From: Parcubacteria bacterium C7867-001
GTDB lineage: Bacteria > Patescibacteriota > Minisyncoccia > Phycocordibacterales > Phycocordibacteraceae
Length of the DNA: 64,000 nt
Reading direction: 5' to 3'
Assembly: GCA_001189095.1 (NCBI GenBank)
Contig: LFCK01000002.1
Coordinates: 131,650-195,649 of the forward strand
A program made the translations under genes and the position numbers. Shown one piece after another: positions 14,748-33,858 of this stretch. The first letter of the stretch is position 1; each line of letters begins with the position of its first letter. Below the pieces are notes generated by a model. The model was not told the origin of the DNA, searched no databases, and was given only the letters and a program-made list of their open reading frames with translations.

Positions 14748-14786
14748 CAAAAAACCACCGCCCCCAAGGGGGCGGTGGTTTTTCGG
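14748..14786 (-). terminator. intrinsic terminator downstream of rpmB (CCACCGCCCCC-AA-GGGGGCGGTGG TTTTT)
   Basis: Perfect 11-bp stem plus T-run. Confidence 0.6.
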
Positions 14787-25871: not shown

Positions 25872-27068
25872 ATGGCTGATGCATTCGATCGTTCGAAGCC
25901 GCACATGAACGTAGGTACCATCGGTCACGTCGACCATGGTAAGACCACGCTCACCGCGGCAATCCTGAATGTTCTTAACCTCAACTCGGCAGCAGGCTAC
26001 AAGGCTCGCGTCGAGAAGGTCGAGAACATCGACAACGCGCCTGAAGAAAAGGCTCGTGGTATTACTATTGCTCTTCACCACTCGGAATACGAGTCGCCGA
26101 AGCGTCACTACGCGCACATCGACGCTCCGGGTCACGCAGACTACATCAAGAACATGATCACGGGTGCCGCCCAGATGGACGGCGCAGTTCTCGTGGTCGC
26201 TGCGACTGACGGCGCAATGCCGCAGACGCGCGAGCACATCCTTCTTGCAAAGCAGGTCGGTGTGCCTAAGCTCATCGTCTTCCTCAACAAGGCAGACATG
26301 GTGGACGACAAGGACATGCTTGATCTCGTCGAAGAGGAAATCAAGGAACTTCTTGCAAAGCAGGGTTACACCGATTCCCCAGTCATTAAGGGTTCGGGTC
26401 TCAAGGCACTTGAGGCAACGGACGCAACTAATGAGTGGGCACTCAAGGTGAAGGAACTCGTCGACACGATGGACTCCTACTTCCCAGATCCGGTTCGCGA
26501 AACCGACAAGCCGTTCCTCATGCCGATCGAGGACATCTTCTCGATTGAAGGTCGCGGTACCGTCGTTACGGGCCGCATCGAGCGCGGTATCGTCAAGGTT
26601 GGTGAGGAAGTTGAAATTGTCGGCATGCAGCCAACAACGAAGACGACCATCACTGGTATCGAGATGTTCAACAAGCAGCTTCAGGAAGGTCAGGCTGGCG
26701 ACAACGCAGGTATCCTTCTCCGTGGTACGAAGAAGGAAGACGTGCACCGCGGTCAGGTCCTCTCGAAGTCAGGCGCGGTTACTCCGCACACCGACTTCGA
26801 TGCTGAGGTGTACATCCTCGGCAAGGACGAAGGCGGTCGCCACACCCCATTCTTCACGGGTTACAAGCCGCAGTTCTACGTCCGCACGACGGACGTGACC
26901 GGCGAAGTGACCCTTCCGGAAGGAAAGGAAATGGTCATGCCGGGCGACACTGTCACCTTCAAGGTGAAGCTTGTCGCTCCTATTGCTCTTGAAGAGCAGC
27001 AGCGCTTCGCTATTCGCGAAGGCGGCAAGACCGTGGGTGCAGGTGTCGTGACGAAGATCACGGCGTAA
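25872..27068 (+). CDS. tuf: translation elongation factor Tu
   Basis: [21 protein letters not shown] and SAL-like motifs; 398 aa. Confidence 0.96.
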
Positions 27069-27090: not shown

Positions 27091-27450
27091 ATGGCAGCCA
27101 CTAAGACCTCGAAGAAAGCTACGGCCGCAGCAGTAGCTGCGGGCGAGAGCAAGCTTCGCATCCGGGTCCGTGCCTACGAGCACAAGATTCTCGATCTCTC
27201 GGTGAAGCAGATCATGGATACGGCAGCGCGTTTCGACGCGAAAGTCGTAGGCCCAGTTCCGCTTCCGACGGAGATCAAGCGCTGGACCGTGAACCGCTCG
27301 ACCTTCGTCCATAAAGACGCGCGCGAGCAGTTCGAGATGCGCATCCACAAGCGACTCATCGACATCCTGAATCCGAATGCGAAAGTCATCGAGGCTCTCA
27401 CGAACCTCAGTCTTCCGTCCGGCGTCACGATTGACGTGAAGATGGTCTAG
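27091..27450 (+). CDS. rpsJ: 30S ribosomal protein S10 (with Ala/Lys-rich N-terminal extension)
   Basis: Conserved uS10 core (RIRVRAYEHKILD...); immediately downstream of tuf. Confidence 0.9.
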   Translation: MAATKTSKKATAAAVAAGESKLRIRVRAYEHKILDLSVKQIMDTAARFDAKVVGPVPLPTEIKRWTVNRSTFVHKDAREQFEMRIHKRLIDILNPNAKVIEALTNLSLPSGVTIDVKMV

Positions 27451-27469
27451 GCAGAATTGCCGAAGACAG

Positions 27470-27505
27470 CACAAAACCGCCCCTTGAGGGGCGGTTTTGC
27501 GTTTG
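27470..27505 (+). terminator. intrinsic terminator (AAAACCGCCCC-TTGA-GGGGCGGTTTT)
   Basis: Sits where rplC would normally follow rpsJ. Confidence 0.6.
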
Positions 27506-27547
27506 ATTCGTCTTAATGATTAAGTGCAAGGAGAAAAGGAGAAAGAG

Positions 27548-27760
27548 ATGCAGTTCAAAACAGAAGCAGAGCGTGCCGAAGCGCGGGATACGGCGCTTAA
27601 AGCCGAAGCTGCAGCGGCCTACCTTAGGGCATGCGTTGATAATTCGCATATCAATGCAGGGCTTCCCGTCATCGATCGGCAGTTCACGGTGCCGCAAGCT
27701 CTTGAAAAGGGTCTGGCGCTTGCTCGAAAGATGGCGACAGAACAAGACTTCGTCGGATAA
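27548..27760 (+). CDS. small hypothetical protein A (70 aa, helical, Ala/Glu-rich)
   Basis: Long purine-rich SD AAGGAGAAAAGGAGAAAGAG before ATG. Confidence 0.5.
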   Translation: MQFKTEAERAEARDTALKAEAAAAYLRACVDNSHINAGLPVIDRQFTVPQALEKGLALARKMATEQDFVG

Positions 27761-27769
27761 CCAAGTCCA

Positions 27770-27805
27770 AAATCAACCGCCCCAGAGCACTGGGGCGGTT
27801 TTGCA
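27770..27805 (+). terminator. intrinsic terminator (CAACCGCCCCAG-AGCAC-TGGGGCGGTT TTGC)
   Basis: Same stem sequence as the two neighbouring terminators. Confidence 0.55.
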
Positions 27806-27866
27806 TCGTTTTCTTTTTGTCTCGCAGATGCTTTACTTCTTCGCAGACTAGGAAAGGAGGTGCGCT

Positions 27867-28166
27867 ATGGCACTTACGGTCGATGAATTCATGGAAGTCC
27901 TGCGAATCGAGAAAAAGCTCGAAAATCGCGAGGAACTCACGCCTGAAGAGCAGTCGTTCGCGAAGGAGTATAACTGCACCGGTCCCACGCCTTGCGGTTG
28001 CGGAACCAACTGCGGTCTCTTCCTCGAGCCGCGCGTCGATGGCGAACGTCCTATGCTTAACGGCAAGGAAGTGAACCCCGATTGCTACTGGCGCGAACAC
28101 GACAAGGATGCGCCGAACGTTATCGGTCGCGGACGTCGCGGCGGTCGCGGTGCCTACGGCGACTGA
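27867..28166 (+). CDS. small Cys-containing protein B (99 aa; CTGPTPCGCGTNCG cluster and C-terminal RGRRGGRGAYGD tail)
   Basis: Excellent SD GAAAGGAGGTG before ATG; five Cys; RGG-like basic tail. Confidence 0.5.
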   Translation: MALTVDEFMEVLRIEKKLENREELTPEEQSFAKEYNCTGPTPCGCGTNCGLFLEPRVDGERPMLNGKEVNPDCYWREHDKDAPNVIGRGRRGGRGAYGD

Positions 28167-28167
28167 C

Positions 28168-28210
28168 CTACAACCGCCCCAGCTTTGCTGGGGCGGTTTG
28201 CTTTTGTCCG
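28168..28210 (+). terminator. intrinsic terminator (CAACCGCCCCAGC-TTTG-CTGGGGCGGTTTG CTTTTG)
   Basis: Third copy of the AACCGCCCC/GGGGCGGTT stem. Confidence 0.55.
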
Positions 28211-28251
28211 GTTTCGTGATATAACATAGGTGGAAATGGAGGAAGGCCAAT

Positions 28252-28542
28252 ATGACACTTGGCGAAGTAATCAACGACTTCATCTTGTCACTCGTCGTAA
28301 AGGTCCTTCCGCACGAACGCAAGCGTGTCGAGCGGAAGATAAAGACCTTTAACGAGATGCACATTCAAACCCTGAAGGAGATGGACGAAATCGAGCGACG
28401 CTCGGCGGCTGGCATCGTCAGTCCCGAGCAGGCGCTTGAAGCGAATGTGAGAAAGGAAGAGGAGCTCTGGAACCAAGAAGAGGAAATCCGGAGACTCGCG
28501 TTTTTCCTCGGCATCCCCTTCGAAACAGCGGCGGCGCTCTAA
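28252..28542 (+). CDS. small hypothetical protein C (96 aa, charged and helical)
   Basis: SD GGAGGAAGG before ATG; hairpin (AAGCCGCGGCTCCCTCTGGGATCCGCGGCTT) downstream. Confidence 0.45.
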   Translation: MTLGEVINDFILSLVVKVLPHERKRVERKIKTFNEMHIQTLKEMDEIERRSAAGIVSPEQALEANVRKEEELWNQEEEIRRLAFFLGIPFETAAAL

Positions 28543-28662
28543 GCCCGCCCATAAGCCGCGGCTCCCTCTGGGATCCGCGGCTTCGCTCTTATCTAGGAAT
28601 CAGCTGCCTTGCACCCCTACGGGTACCCAGCGGCTTTGCCCCTCGTCAGGTACCCGGCTGCC

Positions 28663-28691
28663 TTGCACAAAAATGACCCTTCCGGTATAGT
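28663..28691 (+). promoter_or_regulatory. sigma70-like promoter for rplC: TTGCAC-17 nt-TATAGT, followed by a ~100-nt leader
   Basis: A second copy of the -35-containing segment (CAGCTGCCTTGCAC) lies 54 bp upstream; the leader could carry an L4-type autoregulatory structure. Confidence 0.5.
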
Positions 28692-28794
28692 CCGTGGGTC
28701 GCTACGTACACCTTTCGGGTGGACCAATGGCCGGGAACGTCCCTCTTGTTGGGGACCGGAACGCGCTGTTGTACAGCGCGAAATTTTTTACCTC

Positions 28795-29427
28795 ATGAAA
28801 TTCATCCTTGCGCGCAAAGACCGCATGACTCAGATCTTCGACGAGAAGGGAGTCGTGCATGCTGGAACCGTCCTCAAGGCGGATCCTTCGGTCGTTACTC
28901 AGGTGAAGACCGTAGACGGCAAGGACGGATACGCAGCGGTGCAGATAGGCTTCGACAAGCAGACGGAAAAGCGTCTCGCGAAGGCTCAGCACAGCAAAGC
29001 ATTTAAAGTACTCAAGGAATTCCGCATCGATAACGTGGCTGATTACACTGTCGGTGGTGAAGCTGGTGTCGATACCTTCGCTGTCGGAGAGGCGGTGCGC
29101 GTCTCGGGCACGAGCAAGGGTCGCGGCTTCGCTGGTGTCGTGAAGCGCTACAACTTCAAGGGAGGTCGCCGCTCGCACGGTCAGAAGCACTCGGAACGCG
29201 AGCGTGGTTCTTCCGGAGGCGGTCCAGGTCGCGCTGGCGGTCGCGTTGCGCTCGGTATGCGCATGGCCGGCCGCATGGGTTCTGAGCGTGTCACCGTCGA
29301 CGGGCTCAAGGTCCTCCATGTGGACGCAAAGGCAGGCGAAATCATCATCTCGGGAGCAATTCCGGGAGCACGCGGCTCGTTGGTCGAGGTCGTGTCAGCA
29401 CCGCTTGGTCAGGGCAAGAAGAAATAA
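28795..29427 (+). CDS. rplC: 50S ribosomal protein L3
   Basis: KGRGFAGVVKRYNFKGG motif; start at MKFILARK, not the upstream in-frame Met. Confidence 0.92.
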   Translation: MKFILARKDRMTQIFDEKGVVHAGTVLKADPSVVTQVKTVDGKDGYAAVQIGFDKQTEKRLAKAQHSKAFKVLKEFRIDNVADYTVGGEAGVDTFAVGEAVRVSGTSKGRGFAGVVKRYNFKGGRRSHGQKHSERERGSSGGGPGRAGGRVALGMRMAGRMGSERVTVDGLKVLHVDAKAGEIIISGAIPGARGSLVEVVSAPLGQGKKK

Positions 29428-30572: not shown

Positions 30573-31415
30573 ATGAAAACTTATCGCCCCTACACGAAGA
30601 GTCGCCGCAACATGACTACCTTGCCGTACAAGGAGCTTCTTTCGGGCGACCGCCCGATGAAGTCGCTCCTCAAGAGCAAGAAGAGTCAGTCGGGACGCAA
30701 CGCCTTCGGCCGCATCACGACGCGCCATCAGGGTGGTGGTCATAAGAAACGCTACCGCGACGTCGATTTCAAATACGACAAGAAGAATATTCCAGCGAAG
30801 GTAGAAACCATCGAATACGATCCGTACCGCACTGCATTCATCGCTCGCGCACTCTTCGCAGACGGCGAACGCCGTTATGTGCTCGCACCAAAGGACCTCA
30901 AGGTCGGTGATCCGTTCATCGTTTCTGAAACTGCGCCGGTAAAGGTGGGCAACCGCCTTCCGCTCGGCCAGATTCCGACGGGTACGTTCATCTACAACAT
31001 CGAGCTCAAAGTCGGTGCTGGTTCACGCCTCGTCCGCTCGGCAGGCAATTACGCAGAAGTCGTCGCTCACGACGCAGGTTTCGCACAGATCAAGCTTCCG
31101 TCGACCGAAATCCGCAAGGTCTCCGACCTCTGCTGGGCATCGGTTGGTGCGGTTGGCAACGAAAACTCGCGCCTCGTGAAGTTCGGTAAGGCAGGTCGCA
31201 GCCGCTGGATGGGTATCCGTCCGACCGTTCGTGGTACTGCCATGAACGCGGTTGATCACCCACACGGTGGTGGTGAAGGACGTCAGGGCCGCGGTCTCCG
31301 TCGCGCAAAGAGCATGTGGGGCAAGCCGACCGGCAAGGGTCAGAAGTCCCGCACGCCGAAGAAATACTCCAACGTGTTCATCGTTTCTCGTCGCAAGGTC
31401 GGCAAGAAGGGATAA
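30573..31415 (+). CDS. rplB: 50S ribosomal protein L2
   Basis: GGGHKKRYR and HPHGGGEGR motifs. Confidence 0.95.
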   Translation: MKTYRPYTKSRRNMTTLPYKELLSGDRPMKSLLKSKKSQSGRNAFGRITTRHQGGGHKKRYRDVDFKYDKKNIPAKVETIEYDPYRTAFIARALFADGERRYVLAPKDLKVGDPFIVSETAPVKVGNRLPLGQIPTGTFIYNIELKVGAGSRLVRSAGNYAEVVAHDAGFAQIKLPSTEIRKVSDLCWASVGAVGNENSRLVKFGKAGRSRWMGIRPTVRGTAMNAVDHPHGGGEGRQGRGLRRAKSMWGKPTGKGQKSRTPKKYSNVFIVSRRKVGKKG

Positions 31416-31455
31416 AACAAAAAGCCCCGCTTTCGCGGGGCTTTTTGTTTCTGCT
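31416..31455. terminator. bidirectional terminator (AAAAGCCCCGC-TTTC-GCGGGGCTTTTTG)
   Basis: Lies where rpsS would normally follow rplB; convergent with a minus-strand gene. Confidence 0.65.
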
Positions 31456-31456
31456 T

Positions 31457-32116
31457 TTATGATGGCGGATGCTTTTCCTCGTAGAGCTTTACGATCTCGC
31501 GAACGAATTTCCGATCACGCTCCTTGTTTTCGTCAGTGAGTTTCTCGTATGGATCAAGCTGGTCAATGAGATCGGTAAGTCGTGCATCTGCTCGAGCAGC
31601 TTCTTCGTTGGCGAAACCACCTTGCTTCATGCGAATGCTAATTTCTCGCTTCAGGTCCTCCCCGTTACGGAGGAACCACTGTTCGTGTATTGCGTTGGCA
31701 GTTGCATCAATGAATGTCTCGTTGAGCGGCGTTCCATTGCGCGCCGCTCGGTATACGGATTCGATCGCGTAGTCATAGCTTGCGAGCGAGTCTTCCTGTC
31801 GGCTGGGCGGAAGTTCGTCGAACGAGTATGACGCAATGTCGACTGCAGGAACCGCTTCATCTCCGAAATCAGGATCTTTTCCTACGCGCTCCGGATGTTT
31901 CTTCATCCACATCCCGTCCTGCTCTGCGTGCAGCGGCTTGAAACGAGATTTGATAGTTTCGGTCCCGTCGGGGTTCTGTATGCGCCGACCCTCTCGGTAT
32001 TTCTCATGGTTCGCGCTCGCTTGAGTGCGGAAACCGGCAATCATCTCCTTTTCCTCAATAGACAGAGGGCTCACCTCCTTTTTTTTGCTGCCTCCCATGA
32101 ATCGTTCGAAAAACAT
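31457..32116 (-). CDS. hypothetical protein (219 aa, charged, no TM)
   Basis: Long ORF; last gene of a three-gene minus-strand insert within the S10 cluster. Confidence 0.5.
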   Translation of the reverse strand: MFFERFMGGSKKKEVSPLSIEEKEMIAGFRTQASANHEKYREGRRIQNPDGTETIKSRFKPLHAEQDGMWMKKHPERVGKDPDFGDEAVPAVDIASYSFDELPPSRQEDSLASYDYAIESVYRAARNGTPLNETFIDATANAIHEQWFLRNGEDLKREISIRMKQGGFANEEAARADARLTDLIDQLDPYEKLTDENKERDRKFVREIVKLYEEKHPPS

Positions 32117-32163
32117 ACTAGTGCTGTAACTGATAATGCTCTAACTATAAACGGAAGCTGCCA

Positions 32164-32994
32164 CTACTGGTACTTAGTTTTAAGAATTGCCTTGAGGTCG
32201 GAGAGGGGAATGCGAAGGGTTTGCGGACCGGCGGCGTACGCAGCAACTTGATACGGCGGGAAGAGAATAACGAGTGTTTTTCCATCGAGATAGAAACTTT
32301 GGAAATTGTCGCCGTCTGCGGAAGCTCCGTCATTGATGGCCTGCATGTCGACCTGTGAGATCGAGACACCTTCTGCTTTTGCGATGATTGCGGGAAGTTT
32401 TGCTCGAGCGAGCGAGGATATCTTTCCGAGGTAGTCGCTGTTCGGGGTGAAGAGGTCGCCAAACAATACGCCGGCTCCTGTTGCCGAATCGAAGGTAAAG
32501 GTGCGGTAGAACCCGTTACCGTGCGCACCGAGGGTATCTTCATAGATATCGAGCACGTAGGAGATGGTCATTGGTGAAGTGTAGAGTTTGTAGTCGATTG
32601 TGAGCGTGTATTTGCGGCCCTGATCGAGTCCTTGAATCTTGATATCTTCTGCGGTGAGATTTGCGAAATTGCCGTTCTCCTTGAAGCTTTCTATGGTGTT
32701 CTGCTCGAATCCTTTGATTGCGCTTACTGCGCGCTGATCCGCGAGCGCTCCAGCGGTCTTTTTGAGCGGTGTCTCACCAGGGTAGGACGTCGAGATGTCG
32801 TAATATTTTCCGTTCTCTTCGATGGATTTGGGTCCAATCGCAGATACGCTTCCTTCGTCGGTCGAGGTTGCGGTTTCAGACGGACGAGTAAATACGGAAA
32901 GAAGCGGCGACCACGATGGATAGGTGATGTAGAGGCCTTCGCCGACAACGAGGAGGATAAGAACGATAACAAGCGGCGATTTGAGGTGTTCCAT
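32164..32994 (-). CDS. DUF4163/DUF3298 (RsiV/PdaC-like) domain protein with N-terminal TM anchor
   Basis: N-terminal TM helix; C-terminal ...ILFPPYQVAAYAAGPQTLRIPLSDLK matches the DUF3298 signature. Confidence 0.6.
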   Translation of the reverse strand: MEHLKSPLVIVLILLVVGEGLYITYPSWSPLLSVFTRPSETATSTDEGSVSAIGPKSIEENGKYYDISTSYPGETPLKKTAGALADQRAVSAIKGFEQNTIESFKENGNFANLTAEDIKIQGLDQGRKYTLTIDYKLYTSPMTISYVLDIYEDTLGAHGNGFYRTFTFDSATGAGVLFGDLFTPNSDYLGKISSLARAKLPAIIAKAEGVSISQVDMQAINDGASADGDNFQSFYLDGKTLVILFPPYQVAAYAAGPQTLRIPLSDLKAILKTKYQ

Positions 32995-33063
32995 ATCACC
33001 CCATCTTAGCGCACGGAACATGAAGGAAATGCAAAGCCCCGCGCGTAGCGCGGGGCTGTATGG

Positions 33064-33630
33064 TTAGACGCCGAGACGTTTCCTTTGTTTGCGAAGGCCG
33101 ACGAGCCCACGATGCTCTTCGAGCACCTCGCGTTCAGCTCGAGCCTGAAAAATCTGATCGAGCGAGTATTGTCTCGTCGAATACAGGAAGTTCCCACCGA
33201 TGGAGAGTGCCCGCTGCCATTCGGCGTCGAGCATCGCTCCAAAGATTTTAATCTCCGGGTGCTGCTTGTAGGGCTTGTCCTGAGCTGCGAATCCGAGATG
33301 GGACGTATCGGGAATCTTGAAGTGATTCGCGACCGTTCCGTACATAACGTAGTTCGTTCCGGGATTCGCAAGGTCCGGCCTTGATTCGAAGGCGAGCGCA
33401 AGCACGCACTCGTTGTCGTAGCTGTCGTGCGCACGGAATCGGCAGGTGCCGTCCTCCTGTGGCTCGAACATGTTTCGGTGCCAACCGGCAGGAGCGTGCT
33501 CCCGAAGCCATTTGATGCCGCGAGCGACACGGCGCTCGGTAAGGAGCCTGCTCAGTCGATCAGGATCAGTACGCCGGAGCCGAAGATACTCGAGCGATTT
33601 CGCCAAAATTTCCTCTTTTGAGGGTTTCAT
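33064..33630 (-). CDS. hypothetical protein (188 aa)
   Basis: Strong SD TAGGAGGT 6 nt before ATG (start taken at MKPSKEEIL); GC hairpin downstream at 33034..33057. Confidence 0.5.
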   Translation of the reverse strand: MKPSKEEILAKSLEYLRLRRTDPDRLSRLLTERRVARGIKWLREHAPAGWHRNMFEPQEDGTCRFRAHDSYDNECVLALAFESRPDLANPGTNYVMYGTVANHFKIPDTSHLGFAAQDKPYKQHPEIKIFGAMLDAEWQRALSIGGNFLYSTRQYSLDQIFQARAEREVLEEHRGLVGLRKQRKRLGV

Positions 33631-33858
33631 TGAATACCTCCTAAGGTTCAACCTAAGCGAAACCCTAGCATGGGGAGCACCGTTTGACACCCATACGCTT
33701 TTCCTATAGATTGCTCCTATCCGCAAACACGCGGGTTCTGGCCGCTTCTGGCCTTAGGGAGCCTAAACGCTTTCAAAAACCGAGCTTCTGCACCGTATAG
33801 CGGTCGTTAGCTCGGCCGAATTTGTTTAACCCAAAAACCACTTTTACCTACCCAATTC

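Follow-up and report, generated by a model that had tools for sequence, protein, structure and literature searches.

We found that the 1.1-kb stretch between rpsJ (ribosomal protein S10) and rplC (L3) of Parcubacteria bacterium C7867-001 is probably a lineage-specific accessory islet that occupies a point where the S10 gene cluster is naturally broken, a reading to which we assign a probability of about 0.6. The source is a genome bin from Hanford groundwater (812 kb, 53% GC; PMC4508563), and the window, the whole stretch of DNA that was analysed, spans 64 kb. All genes and elements of the locus lie on the + strand, in the order tuf, rpsJ, hairpin hp1, orfA, hairpin hp2, orfB, hairpin hp3, orfC, a different hairpin, a promoter, a structured leader, rplC, rplD, rplW and rplB. 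An initial annotation of this DNA had placed three small open reading frames (ORFs) between rpsJ and rplC, orfA (70 aa), orfB (99 aa) and orfC (96 aa), each with a purine-rich Shine-Dalgarno (SD) sequence. The coordinates are confirmed, and the SD motifs lie 4-6 nt 5' of each ATG. The products of orfA and orfC are identical to ABA06_03310 and ABA06_03320, two hypothetical proteins of this bacterium.

The evidence for a natural break comes from a comparison of 80 species-level Paceibacteria loci (L001-L080), centred on rpsJ and covering 788 kb. S10 of Paceibacteria relatives is 85-95% identical to the window rpsJ product. At an S10 identity of about 70-75%, rplC mostly follows rpsJ in the canonical way, 14-37 bp downstream, whereas at 80% identity or more the rpsJ-rplC gap measures at least 160 bp and up to 4.8 kb. 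Among the relatives in this closer group, the S10-to-L3 gap has a median of 929 bp and exceeds 150 bp in 34 of 35, and the L2-to-S19 gap has a median of 1207 bp and exceeds 150 bp in 15 of 18. The seven other junctions of the S10 cluster have median gaps of 48 bp or less, so that rpsJ-rplC and rplB-rpsS alone are expanded. In the minimal gaps (L010, L011, L021, L027), the rpsJ terminator is followed at once by a promoter, TTGCAT-17-TAGAGT, and then by the conserved leader. This combination of terminator, promoter and leader suggests that in this clade the S10 cluster is split into separate transcription units and that its breaks act as hotspots of gene gain. The gaps contain 86 ORFs of at least 60 aa, almost all of them BLASTP singletons, and their Pfam content is miscellaneous: DUF3141, sugar transferase, SDR, pirin, reverse transcriptase plus bAvd, NUDIX and NYN. 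The gap with the reverse transcriptase and the bAvd-like protein, found in one relative, bears the signature of a diversity-generating retroelement.

We therefore propose a model in which the tuf-rpsJ unit of this Paceibacteria clade would end in its own intrinsic terminator, and a separate promoter and structured leader would serve the rplC-rplD-rplW-rplB unit. Insertions would be tolerated in the interval from terminator to promoter, which nearly every species would have filled with different genes. At the locus studied here, hp2 and hp3 would have arisen as copies of the rpsJ terminator while genes were added; the copies might now insulate each small gene, with the ribosomal protein (r-protein) units keeping their own transcription. 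Expression of the small genes would probably rely on read-through from tuf-rpsJ, a heavily transcribed unit, or on weak promoter-like elements at the terminator tails. The features of the locus are as follows.

25872-27068, + strand: tuf.
27091-27450, + strand: rpsJ (S10), last gene of the tuf-rpsJ unit, without an SD.
27472-27499, + strand: hp1, predicted intrinsic terminator of rpsJ; 12-bp stem CAAAACCGCCCC/GGGGCGGTTTTG, loop TTGA, tail TTTTGCGTTTGATT.
27497-27525, + strand: weak, putative promoter-like element TTGCGT-17-TTAAGT, overlapping the hp1 tail, 5' of orfA.
27548-27760, + strand: orfA, 70 aa, with the SD AAGGAG at 27536-27541; specific to this strain and unvalidated by conservation.
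27775-27800, + strand: hp2, apparent copy of the rpsJ terminator, 3' of orfA; 11-bp stem AACCGCCCCAG/CTGGGGCGGTT, loop AGCA, interrupted U tract.
27867-28166, + strand: orfB, 99 aa, with the SD AAGGAGGTG at 27854-27862; small four-Cys protein with a basic disordered tail.
28172-28198, + strand: hp3, apparent copy of the rpsJ terminator, 3' of orfB; 12-bp stem AACCGCCCCAGC/GCTGGGGCGGTT, loop TTT.
28198-28225, + strand: putative promoter-like element TTGCTT-16-TATAAC, overlapping the hp3 tail, 5' of orfC.
28252-28542, + strand: orfC, 96 aa, with the SD GGAGGAAGG at 28238-28246; predicted helical hairpin.
28553-28583, + strand: imperfect hairpin closing orfC, AAGCCGCGGCTCCC/GGGATCCGCGGCTT, with a stem unlike hp1-hp3 and a weak U tail.
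28603-28668, + strand: local tandem duplication of ~54 nt, with GCTGCCTTGCAC at 28603 and 28657, which doubles the -35 region of the rplC promoter.
28663-28691, + strand: predicted rplC promoter TTGCAC-17-TATAGT, the right edge of the islet.
28692-28794, + strand: conserved and structured rplC leader, with a terminator-like hairpin (28762-28780) and a T run at its end, just 5' of the ATG.
28795-29427, + strand: rplC, followed by rplD, rplW and rplB.

The coding status of the small ORFs was assessed against the sole close relative, a 1297-bp contig of a sister strain (L081, from run DRR274965) that carries the end of rpsJ, orfB, hp3, orfC and rplC, with orfA absent. For orfB, the ratio of nonsynonymous to synonymous substitution rates (dN/dS, or omega) is 0.069, 32 of the 44 differences fall at codon position 3, and residues 39-99 are identical despite many synonymous changes. 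The ratio is 0.18 for orfC and 0.063 for rplC, which served as the baseline, so that the constraint on orfB is as strong as that on rplC (omega 0.07 vs 0.06). Since shifted reading frames give dN/dS values above 1.5, the low in-frame ratios indicate that orfB and orfC are protein-coding and constrained, and this purifying selection implies that both are functional proteins. The idea of the initial annotation that the ORFs are real genes thus stands for at least these two. The codon-usage scores of all three ORFs lie above the 95th percentile of out-of-frame ORFs, with orfA at 0.127 per codon. Its GC content at third codon positions (GC3), 0.51, is lower than the 0.66-0.75 of its neighbours; we regard orfA as a plausible but unproven gene and a recent strain-specific addition. 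The ORFs could instead be chance open frames in a long regulatory spacer that encode nothing, as might be supposed from their small size, their lack of an annotated family and the missing comparative support for orfA. The selection values, the third-position bias, the shifted-frame comparison, the codon-usage scores and the 32 representatives of the orfB family described below all oppose this explanation, which is refuted for orfB and orfC and as a whole has a very small probability.

Synonymous divergence from the sister strain is uneven across the locus (dS 1.15 for rplC, 0.75 for orfB and 0.25 for orfC), a pattern that would fit a later exchange of the islet between strains than of the flanking core gene. 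Upstream of orfB and orfC, the sequence is 97% and 98% identical to that of the sister strain, compared to 82% for the rplC coding sequence. Within the region upstream of orfC, positions 28199-28251 are 98% identical, while nearby synonymous sites have diverged. Such conservation suggests either regulatory constraint or recent exchange. The three ORFs are not related to one another: all-against-all BLASTP with E values up to 100 returned 3-residue matches only, which rules out paralogous cassettes and the duplication of a single unit. The proposal that one unit had been duplicated is thus not sustained, as the repeat is limited to a hairpin and its T-rich tail, a unit of only ~35 nt.

We next consider the hairpins themselves. 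The arms AACCGCCCC/GGGGCGGTT are identical in all three (27475-27496, 27775-27800 and 28172-28198). It had been stated that each ORF is closed by a near-identical hairpin; this applies to orfA and orfB, while orfC ends in a different hairpin and the third hairpin with the common stem closes rpsJ. The pattern AACCGCCCC-N3-12-GGGGCGGTT has three matches in the window (64 kb) and none in 100 shuffles, and no further copy of the exact 9-mer stem was found elsewhere in the window. Perfect-stem hairpins number 41 in the window; most are intergenic terminators, and their stems are diverse. Among their 820 pairs, stretches of 9 nt or more are common only to the pairs formed by hp1, hp2 and hp3 (11, 9 and 9 nt). 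The likeness of the three is therefore greater than that among other terminators, as judged from those of the window. The closest match outside the locus is the terminator at 14750-14783 (AAAAACCACCGCCCC/GGGGCGGTGGTTTTT), which has 8 nt (ACCGCCCC) in common with the rpsJ-type hairpins. Two further resemblances, one between the hp1 5' flank and the rplC -35 region, the other between the start of orfA and a segment inside orfC, were treated as chance.

All three hairpins have the anatomy of intrinsic terminators, with stable GC-rich stem-loops built on perfect 11-12 bp stems and a U tract directly 3' of the stem. The predicted folding energies of hp1, hp2 and hp3 are -25.0, -21.9 and -24.6 kcal/mol (z scores of -4.1 to -4.9), and no shuffled sequence folded as well. 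A consensus terminator scan called hp1 and hp3 and missed hp2 because its U tract is interrupted (UUUUGCAUCGUUUUCUUUUU; tract read TTTTGCATCGTTTTCTTTTT). The hairpin 3' of orfC at 28553-28583 (-24.9 kcal/mol, z -2.4) is identical in the sister strain. No Rfam family matched the region, either at gathering thresholds or at E values up to 10; the only gathering-level matches in the window are a transfer-messenger RNA (tmRNA) at 56020-56437 and a tRNA at 59394-59467, both on the minus strand.

Comparison with the relatives points to the origin of these hairpins. In 16 of the 80 relative loci, the rpsJ stop codon is followed after 15-41 nt by a hairpin that has the same core, ACCGCCC...GGGCGGT, and carries a TTTTGC tail. 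The ACCGCCC core is kept across species of 72-94% S10 identity, and the loops vary (GAAA, GCAA, TTGA and others). The presence of this hairpin 3' of rpsJ in 16 species identifies hp1 as the resident, orthologous rpsJ terminator. We conclude from this comparison that hp2 and hp3 appear to be local copies of it, not the ends of mobile cassettes. The ~54-nt tandem duplication by the rplC promoter, which the sister strain does not have, shows that sequence is duplicated locally in this region.

The initial annotation had suggested repeated insertion of a terminator-bearing cassette, and this is not borne out, as the stem is that of the resident terminator and is not dispersed. A dispersed palindromic element (IS200/IS605, or of the REP/PATE/MITE kind) was likewise rejected, with the stem confined to this locus in the 64 kb and 17 of the 20 copies in the relatives at the rpsJ junction. 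A related alternative is that of hairpin-bounded mobile cassettes, in which each small gene travels with the hairpin or is inserted by an activity that recognises this palindrome, in the manner of integron attC sites or IS200/IS605 palindromes, with the hairpins as cassette ends. The segment with orfA lies between identical palindromes; the sister strain does not have it, and all that it replaces of the sister-strain rpsJ terminator is the core. For this reason we keep hairpin-mediated insertion in the account as an improbable alternative. It would also fit a second locus, L005, where an independent second hairpin copy flanks a 109-aa gene and the arrangement is again hairpin-gene-hairpin with reverse-complementary loops (TTTC and GAAA), and the dS of orfC (0.25), far below that of rplC (1.15), which looks like a more recent exchange of the islet. 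However, 16 species without these genes have the stem as their resident rpsJ terminator, only 3 off-junction copies occur in 788 kb of relatives, and 43 of the 44 other expanded gaps do not have repeated hairpins. Nor do perfect stems of 22-27 nt with T tails resemble the imperfect attC sites, and no recombinase domain was found in the ORFs ~4 kb either side. Relatives of orfA, orfB or orfC were not found in viral contigs or phage records.

The loops of these hairpins provide an observation of their own. The loop of hp3 reads TTT in the window (28184-28186) and AAA in the sister strain (440-442), and the palindromes are otherwise identical; the two hairpins of L005 (4236 and 4648) carry the reverse-complementary loops TTTC and GAAA. 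Flipped loops of this kind suggest inversion or template switching within the stems.

The strong conservation of the stem could alternatively mean that the hairpin is a sequence-specific site in RNA or DNA, recognised by a processing nuclease or a regulatory protein, so that the stem is selected and its copies are kept identical. The core is indeed kept at 72-94% S10 identity while loops vary, and hp1, hp2 and hp3 agree exactly over 9-11 nt where the other terminators of the window all differ. However, every copy has standard terminator anatomy and position, the rpsJ stem of the sister strain is unrelated with gene order intact, no Rfam family matches, and the conservation could reflect slow turnover of a strong terminator beside a highly expressed gene. 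We give this possibility little weight.

Several points weigh against the accessory islet with copied terminators as we propose it. Repeated hairpins are absent from all but one of the 44 other expanded gaps (L005 being the exception), so duplication of the terminator, seen in 1 of about 44, is not a regular consequence of insertion at this site. In the sister strain, the terminator 3' of rpsJ differs (AAAACGGCCCGC/GCGGGCCGTTTT), and positions 27451-27806 of the window, comprising hp1, orfA and hp2, take the place of just the core of that hairpin. An order of events in which hp1 is ancestral and the others were copied from it thus needs an extra replacement in one strain. In addition, orfA has no comparative support, and the promoter-like patterns over the hp1 and hp3 tails were chosen after the sites had been seen. 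Finally, the word-prefiltered search of 5.8 billion clusters, which returned only sister-strain copies, and for orfA only itself, recovered 1 of the 32 orfB relatives; this low sensitivity for orfA and orfC makes their status as proteins with no homolog a weak one.

We further searched for relatives of the three proteins. Pfam, PHROGs, NCBIfam and PADLOC gave no significant match for any of them, and sequence searches of the PDB gave chance-level matches only. A search of related genomes for the same triplet between rpsJ and rplC had been suggested; tblastn with orfA, orfB and orfC found none of them in the 80 related loci. Opposite-strand matches to orfB, weak and located some kb downstream of rpsJ in relatives, were judged spurious. 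We have seen orfC only in C7867-001 and the sister strain. Its AlphaFold2 model, made from single-sequence input, is a helical hairpin with a predicted local distance difference test score (pLDDT) of 85.5, and no family or informative fold match was found for it. It is doubtful, though conceivable, that orfA and perhaps orfC arose de novo in the spacer, from local duplications of the terminator and promoter regions, and were not imported. Local duplications do occur in the region, the gap ORFs of relatives are almost all singletons, orfC is predicted to be a simple helical hairpin, the GC3 of orfA is low, and neither protein has homologs beyond this species in a search that is itself of low sensitivity. 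Set against this, orfB comes from a pre-existing family, so import does occur at the site; orfC is already under purifying selection; and no non-coding precursor was found in the relatives.

An exhaustive HMMER scan with orfB as the query yielded 32 representatives of an orfB family at E ≤ 1e-3, proteins of 59-120 aa with the motif LCGCG(x0-2)CGxxLEPRVDGER..I.GKEVNxDCY...HPIGR, which orfB matches; a narrower orfB-family profile was used for locus finding. The Cys cluster CTGPTPCGCGTNCG and the tail GRGRRGGRGAYGD that had been noted are both present in orfB. The cluster, described at first as without a named family, turns out to be the conserved core of an unnamed one. Of the cysteines of orfB (Cys43, Cys45, Cys49 and Cys73), C43 and C49 are invariant in the family and C73 is kept in at least 90% of sequences. 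Of the tail, described as RGG-like, only a loosely basic character is conserved in the family. Long forms, including orfB, carry two extra N-terminal helices, and the AlphaFold2 model of orfB has a pLDDT of 72.5.

Some distant resemblances were noted. One family member touches the PknG rubredoxin domain (E = 1e-4). The family profile reached bL31 in the PDB at E = 0.45 over 29 residues, which is not significant; in this weak alignment, CGCG and EV(C/N)SxC(H/Y) line up, and the second knuckle of orfB has one Cys, not two. Neither a structural match of orfB to bL31 nor any other fold match was found. Taken from its sequence, orfB is probably a small zinc-binding four-Cys protein with a basic tail, and a zinc knuckle is likely but unproven.

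Gene order ties several members of this family to ribosomal operons. In L094, L083, L091, L100 and L101, the family gene lies directly 3' of rplJ-rplL or rplL, and long forms are directly 3' of rplJ-rplL in at least six representatives, the one hint towards the ribosome-associated or stress-linked role that had been suggested for the small proteins. Downstream of the family gene in those loci are a conserved protein of 192-196 aa and then an MscS-like channel, a part that is shared by L085, L098 and L099. The full conserved order (rplJ, rplL, orfB-family gene, 192-196-aa protein, MscS-like channel) spans 1179-4136 in L094 and 2921-5867 in L100. Two other members lie 5' of YecM-LemA-TPM, and others adjoin nusA/pilB, SPFH/ruvB or pilin/ClpB. 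By gene order, the position of orfB 3' of rpsJ appears to be a second, independent placement at the end of an r-protein unit, and such placement is no more than a hint of a link to translation. That the family is an unrecognised translation-linked zinc-knuckle protein of Patescibacteria, binding the ribosome or r-protein mRNA, is a tentative and rather unlikely proposal; if true, it would explain why orfB-family genes lie at the 3' ends of r-protein units.

Expression signals distinguish the small ORFs from their surroundings. All three have a strong SD, and rpsJ, rplC and tuf have none. Across loci L001-L080, a strong SD precedes 3.6% of flanking ORFs compared to 16% of gap ORFs (p = 0.0015), and SD motifs are rare before core genes of the window and its relatives. 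The promoter-like element at the hp1 tail resembles the junction of the terminator tail and the -35 box of the rplC promoter in L011.

At the other edge of the islet, the rplC promoter is conserved across relatives as TTGCAT-17-TAGAGT, and promoter and leader together are conserved in at least 22 relatives. The leader measures ~100 nt, and between its two conserved anchors, GCUAYGW and CCWAUGGC, lies a hairpin that varies in stem sequence among species and keeps its folding in 22 of 22 relatives; the leaders were folded sequence by sequence between the conserved anchors, and helix lengths vary among relatives. In the window, the terminator-like hairpin at 28762-28780 and its U run end ~10 nt 5' of the rplC ATG, without an SD. 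No Rfam match was found for the leader. From its conserved folding, we consider it a candidate autoregulatory attenuator of rplC-rplD-rplW-rplB.

The second expanded junction of the S10 cluster is also occupied in the window. Between rplB and rpsS, an islet at 31416-33858 contains three minus-strand genes, one with a weak RyR-domain match, one DUF3298/PdaC-like and one without a known family. It has a terminator at 31415-31450 and a promoter, TTGACA-17-TAGATT, at 33684-33712 ahead of rpsS, and its flanking hairpins (31415 and 33035) have AGCCCCGC in common.

The genomes of Patescibacteria are among the smallest and most streamlined of bacteria, yet in this clade the S10 cluster is opened at two fixed points where genes land. 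The locus described here, framed by a terminator on one side and by a promoter and candidate attenuator on the other, is a defined and easily aligned place to study gene gain in reduced genomes that leaves r-protein stoichiometry undisturbed. New to annotation are a family of Cys-rich small proteins tied by gene order to ribosomal operons and an rplC leader RNA outside Rfam. The locus is of value for annotation and as a clean comparative model.

Set beside known systems, the three hairpins are like intrinsic terminators in their GC-rich perfect stems of 11-12 bp, loops of 3-4 nt, T-rich tails and position 5-25 nt 3' of a stop codon. They differ from ordinary ones in forming three copies with identical stems within 750 bp, in the interrupted U tract of hp2 and in a stem sequence that is itself conserved at the rpsJ position across many species. 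Hotspots of gene gain, or islets, between conserved core genes are reportedly found in bacterial pangenomes. The locus resembles them as a fixed interval between conserved genes whose accessory content changes from species to species and is mostly unrelated, but this interval lies inside the normally contiguous S10 cluster of tiny genomes (about 0.8 Mb). Nearby (ORFs ~4 kb either side), there was no sign of an integrase, a tRNA or a prophage marker. The promoterless-looking small ORFs in one orientation, the palindrome 3' of each and the presence or absence of one unit between strains recall integron cassettes. However, attC sites are imperfect palindromes of about 57-141 nt with extrahelical bases, whereas the hairpins here are short, perfect and identical to the host rpsJ terminator. 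No integrase was found within ~4 kb, and no recombinase was seen in the ORFs ~4 kb either side or among the best 25 of the 62 Pfam families of the window. The product of orfB is like zinc-ribbon and zinc-knuckle proteins, including bL31, in its small size, CxC...C...C pattern, basic tail and genes near r-protein operons; it is unlike bL31 in having no significant sequence (E = 0.45) or structural match, a one-Cys second knuckle and, in most long forms, a two-helix N-terminal extension. The rplC leader parallels the Escherichia coli S10 operon leader, the site of L4-mediated attenuation, as a structured RNA with a terminator hairpin ahead of the L3, L4, L23 and L2 unit, but it precedes rplC, not rpsJ, and has no sequence or Rfam relation to it. 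In conclusion, we read the locus as an accessory islet set in an operon break, not as a new kind of system, and the undescribed orfB family is its most interesting part.

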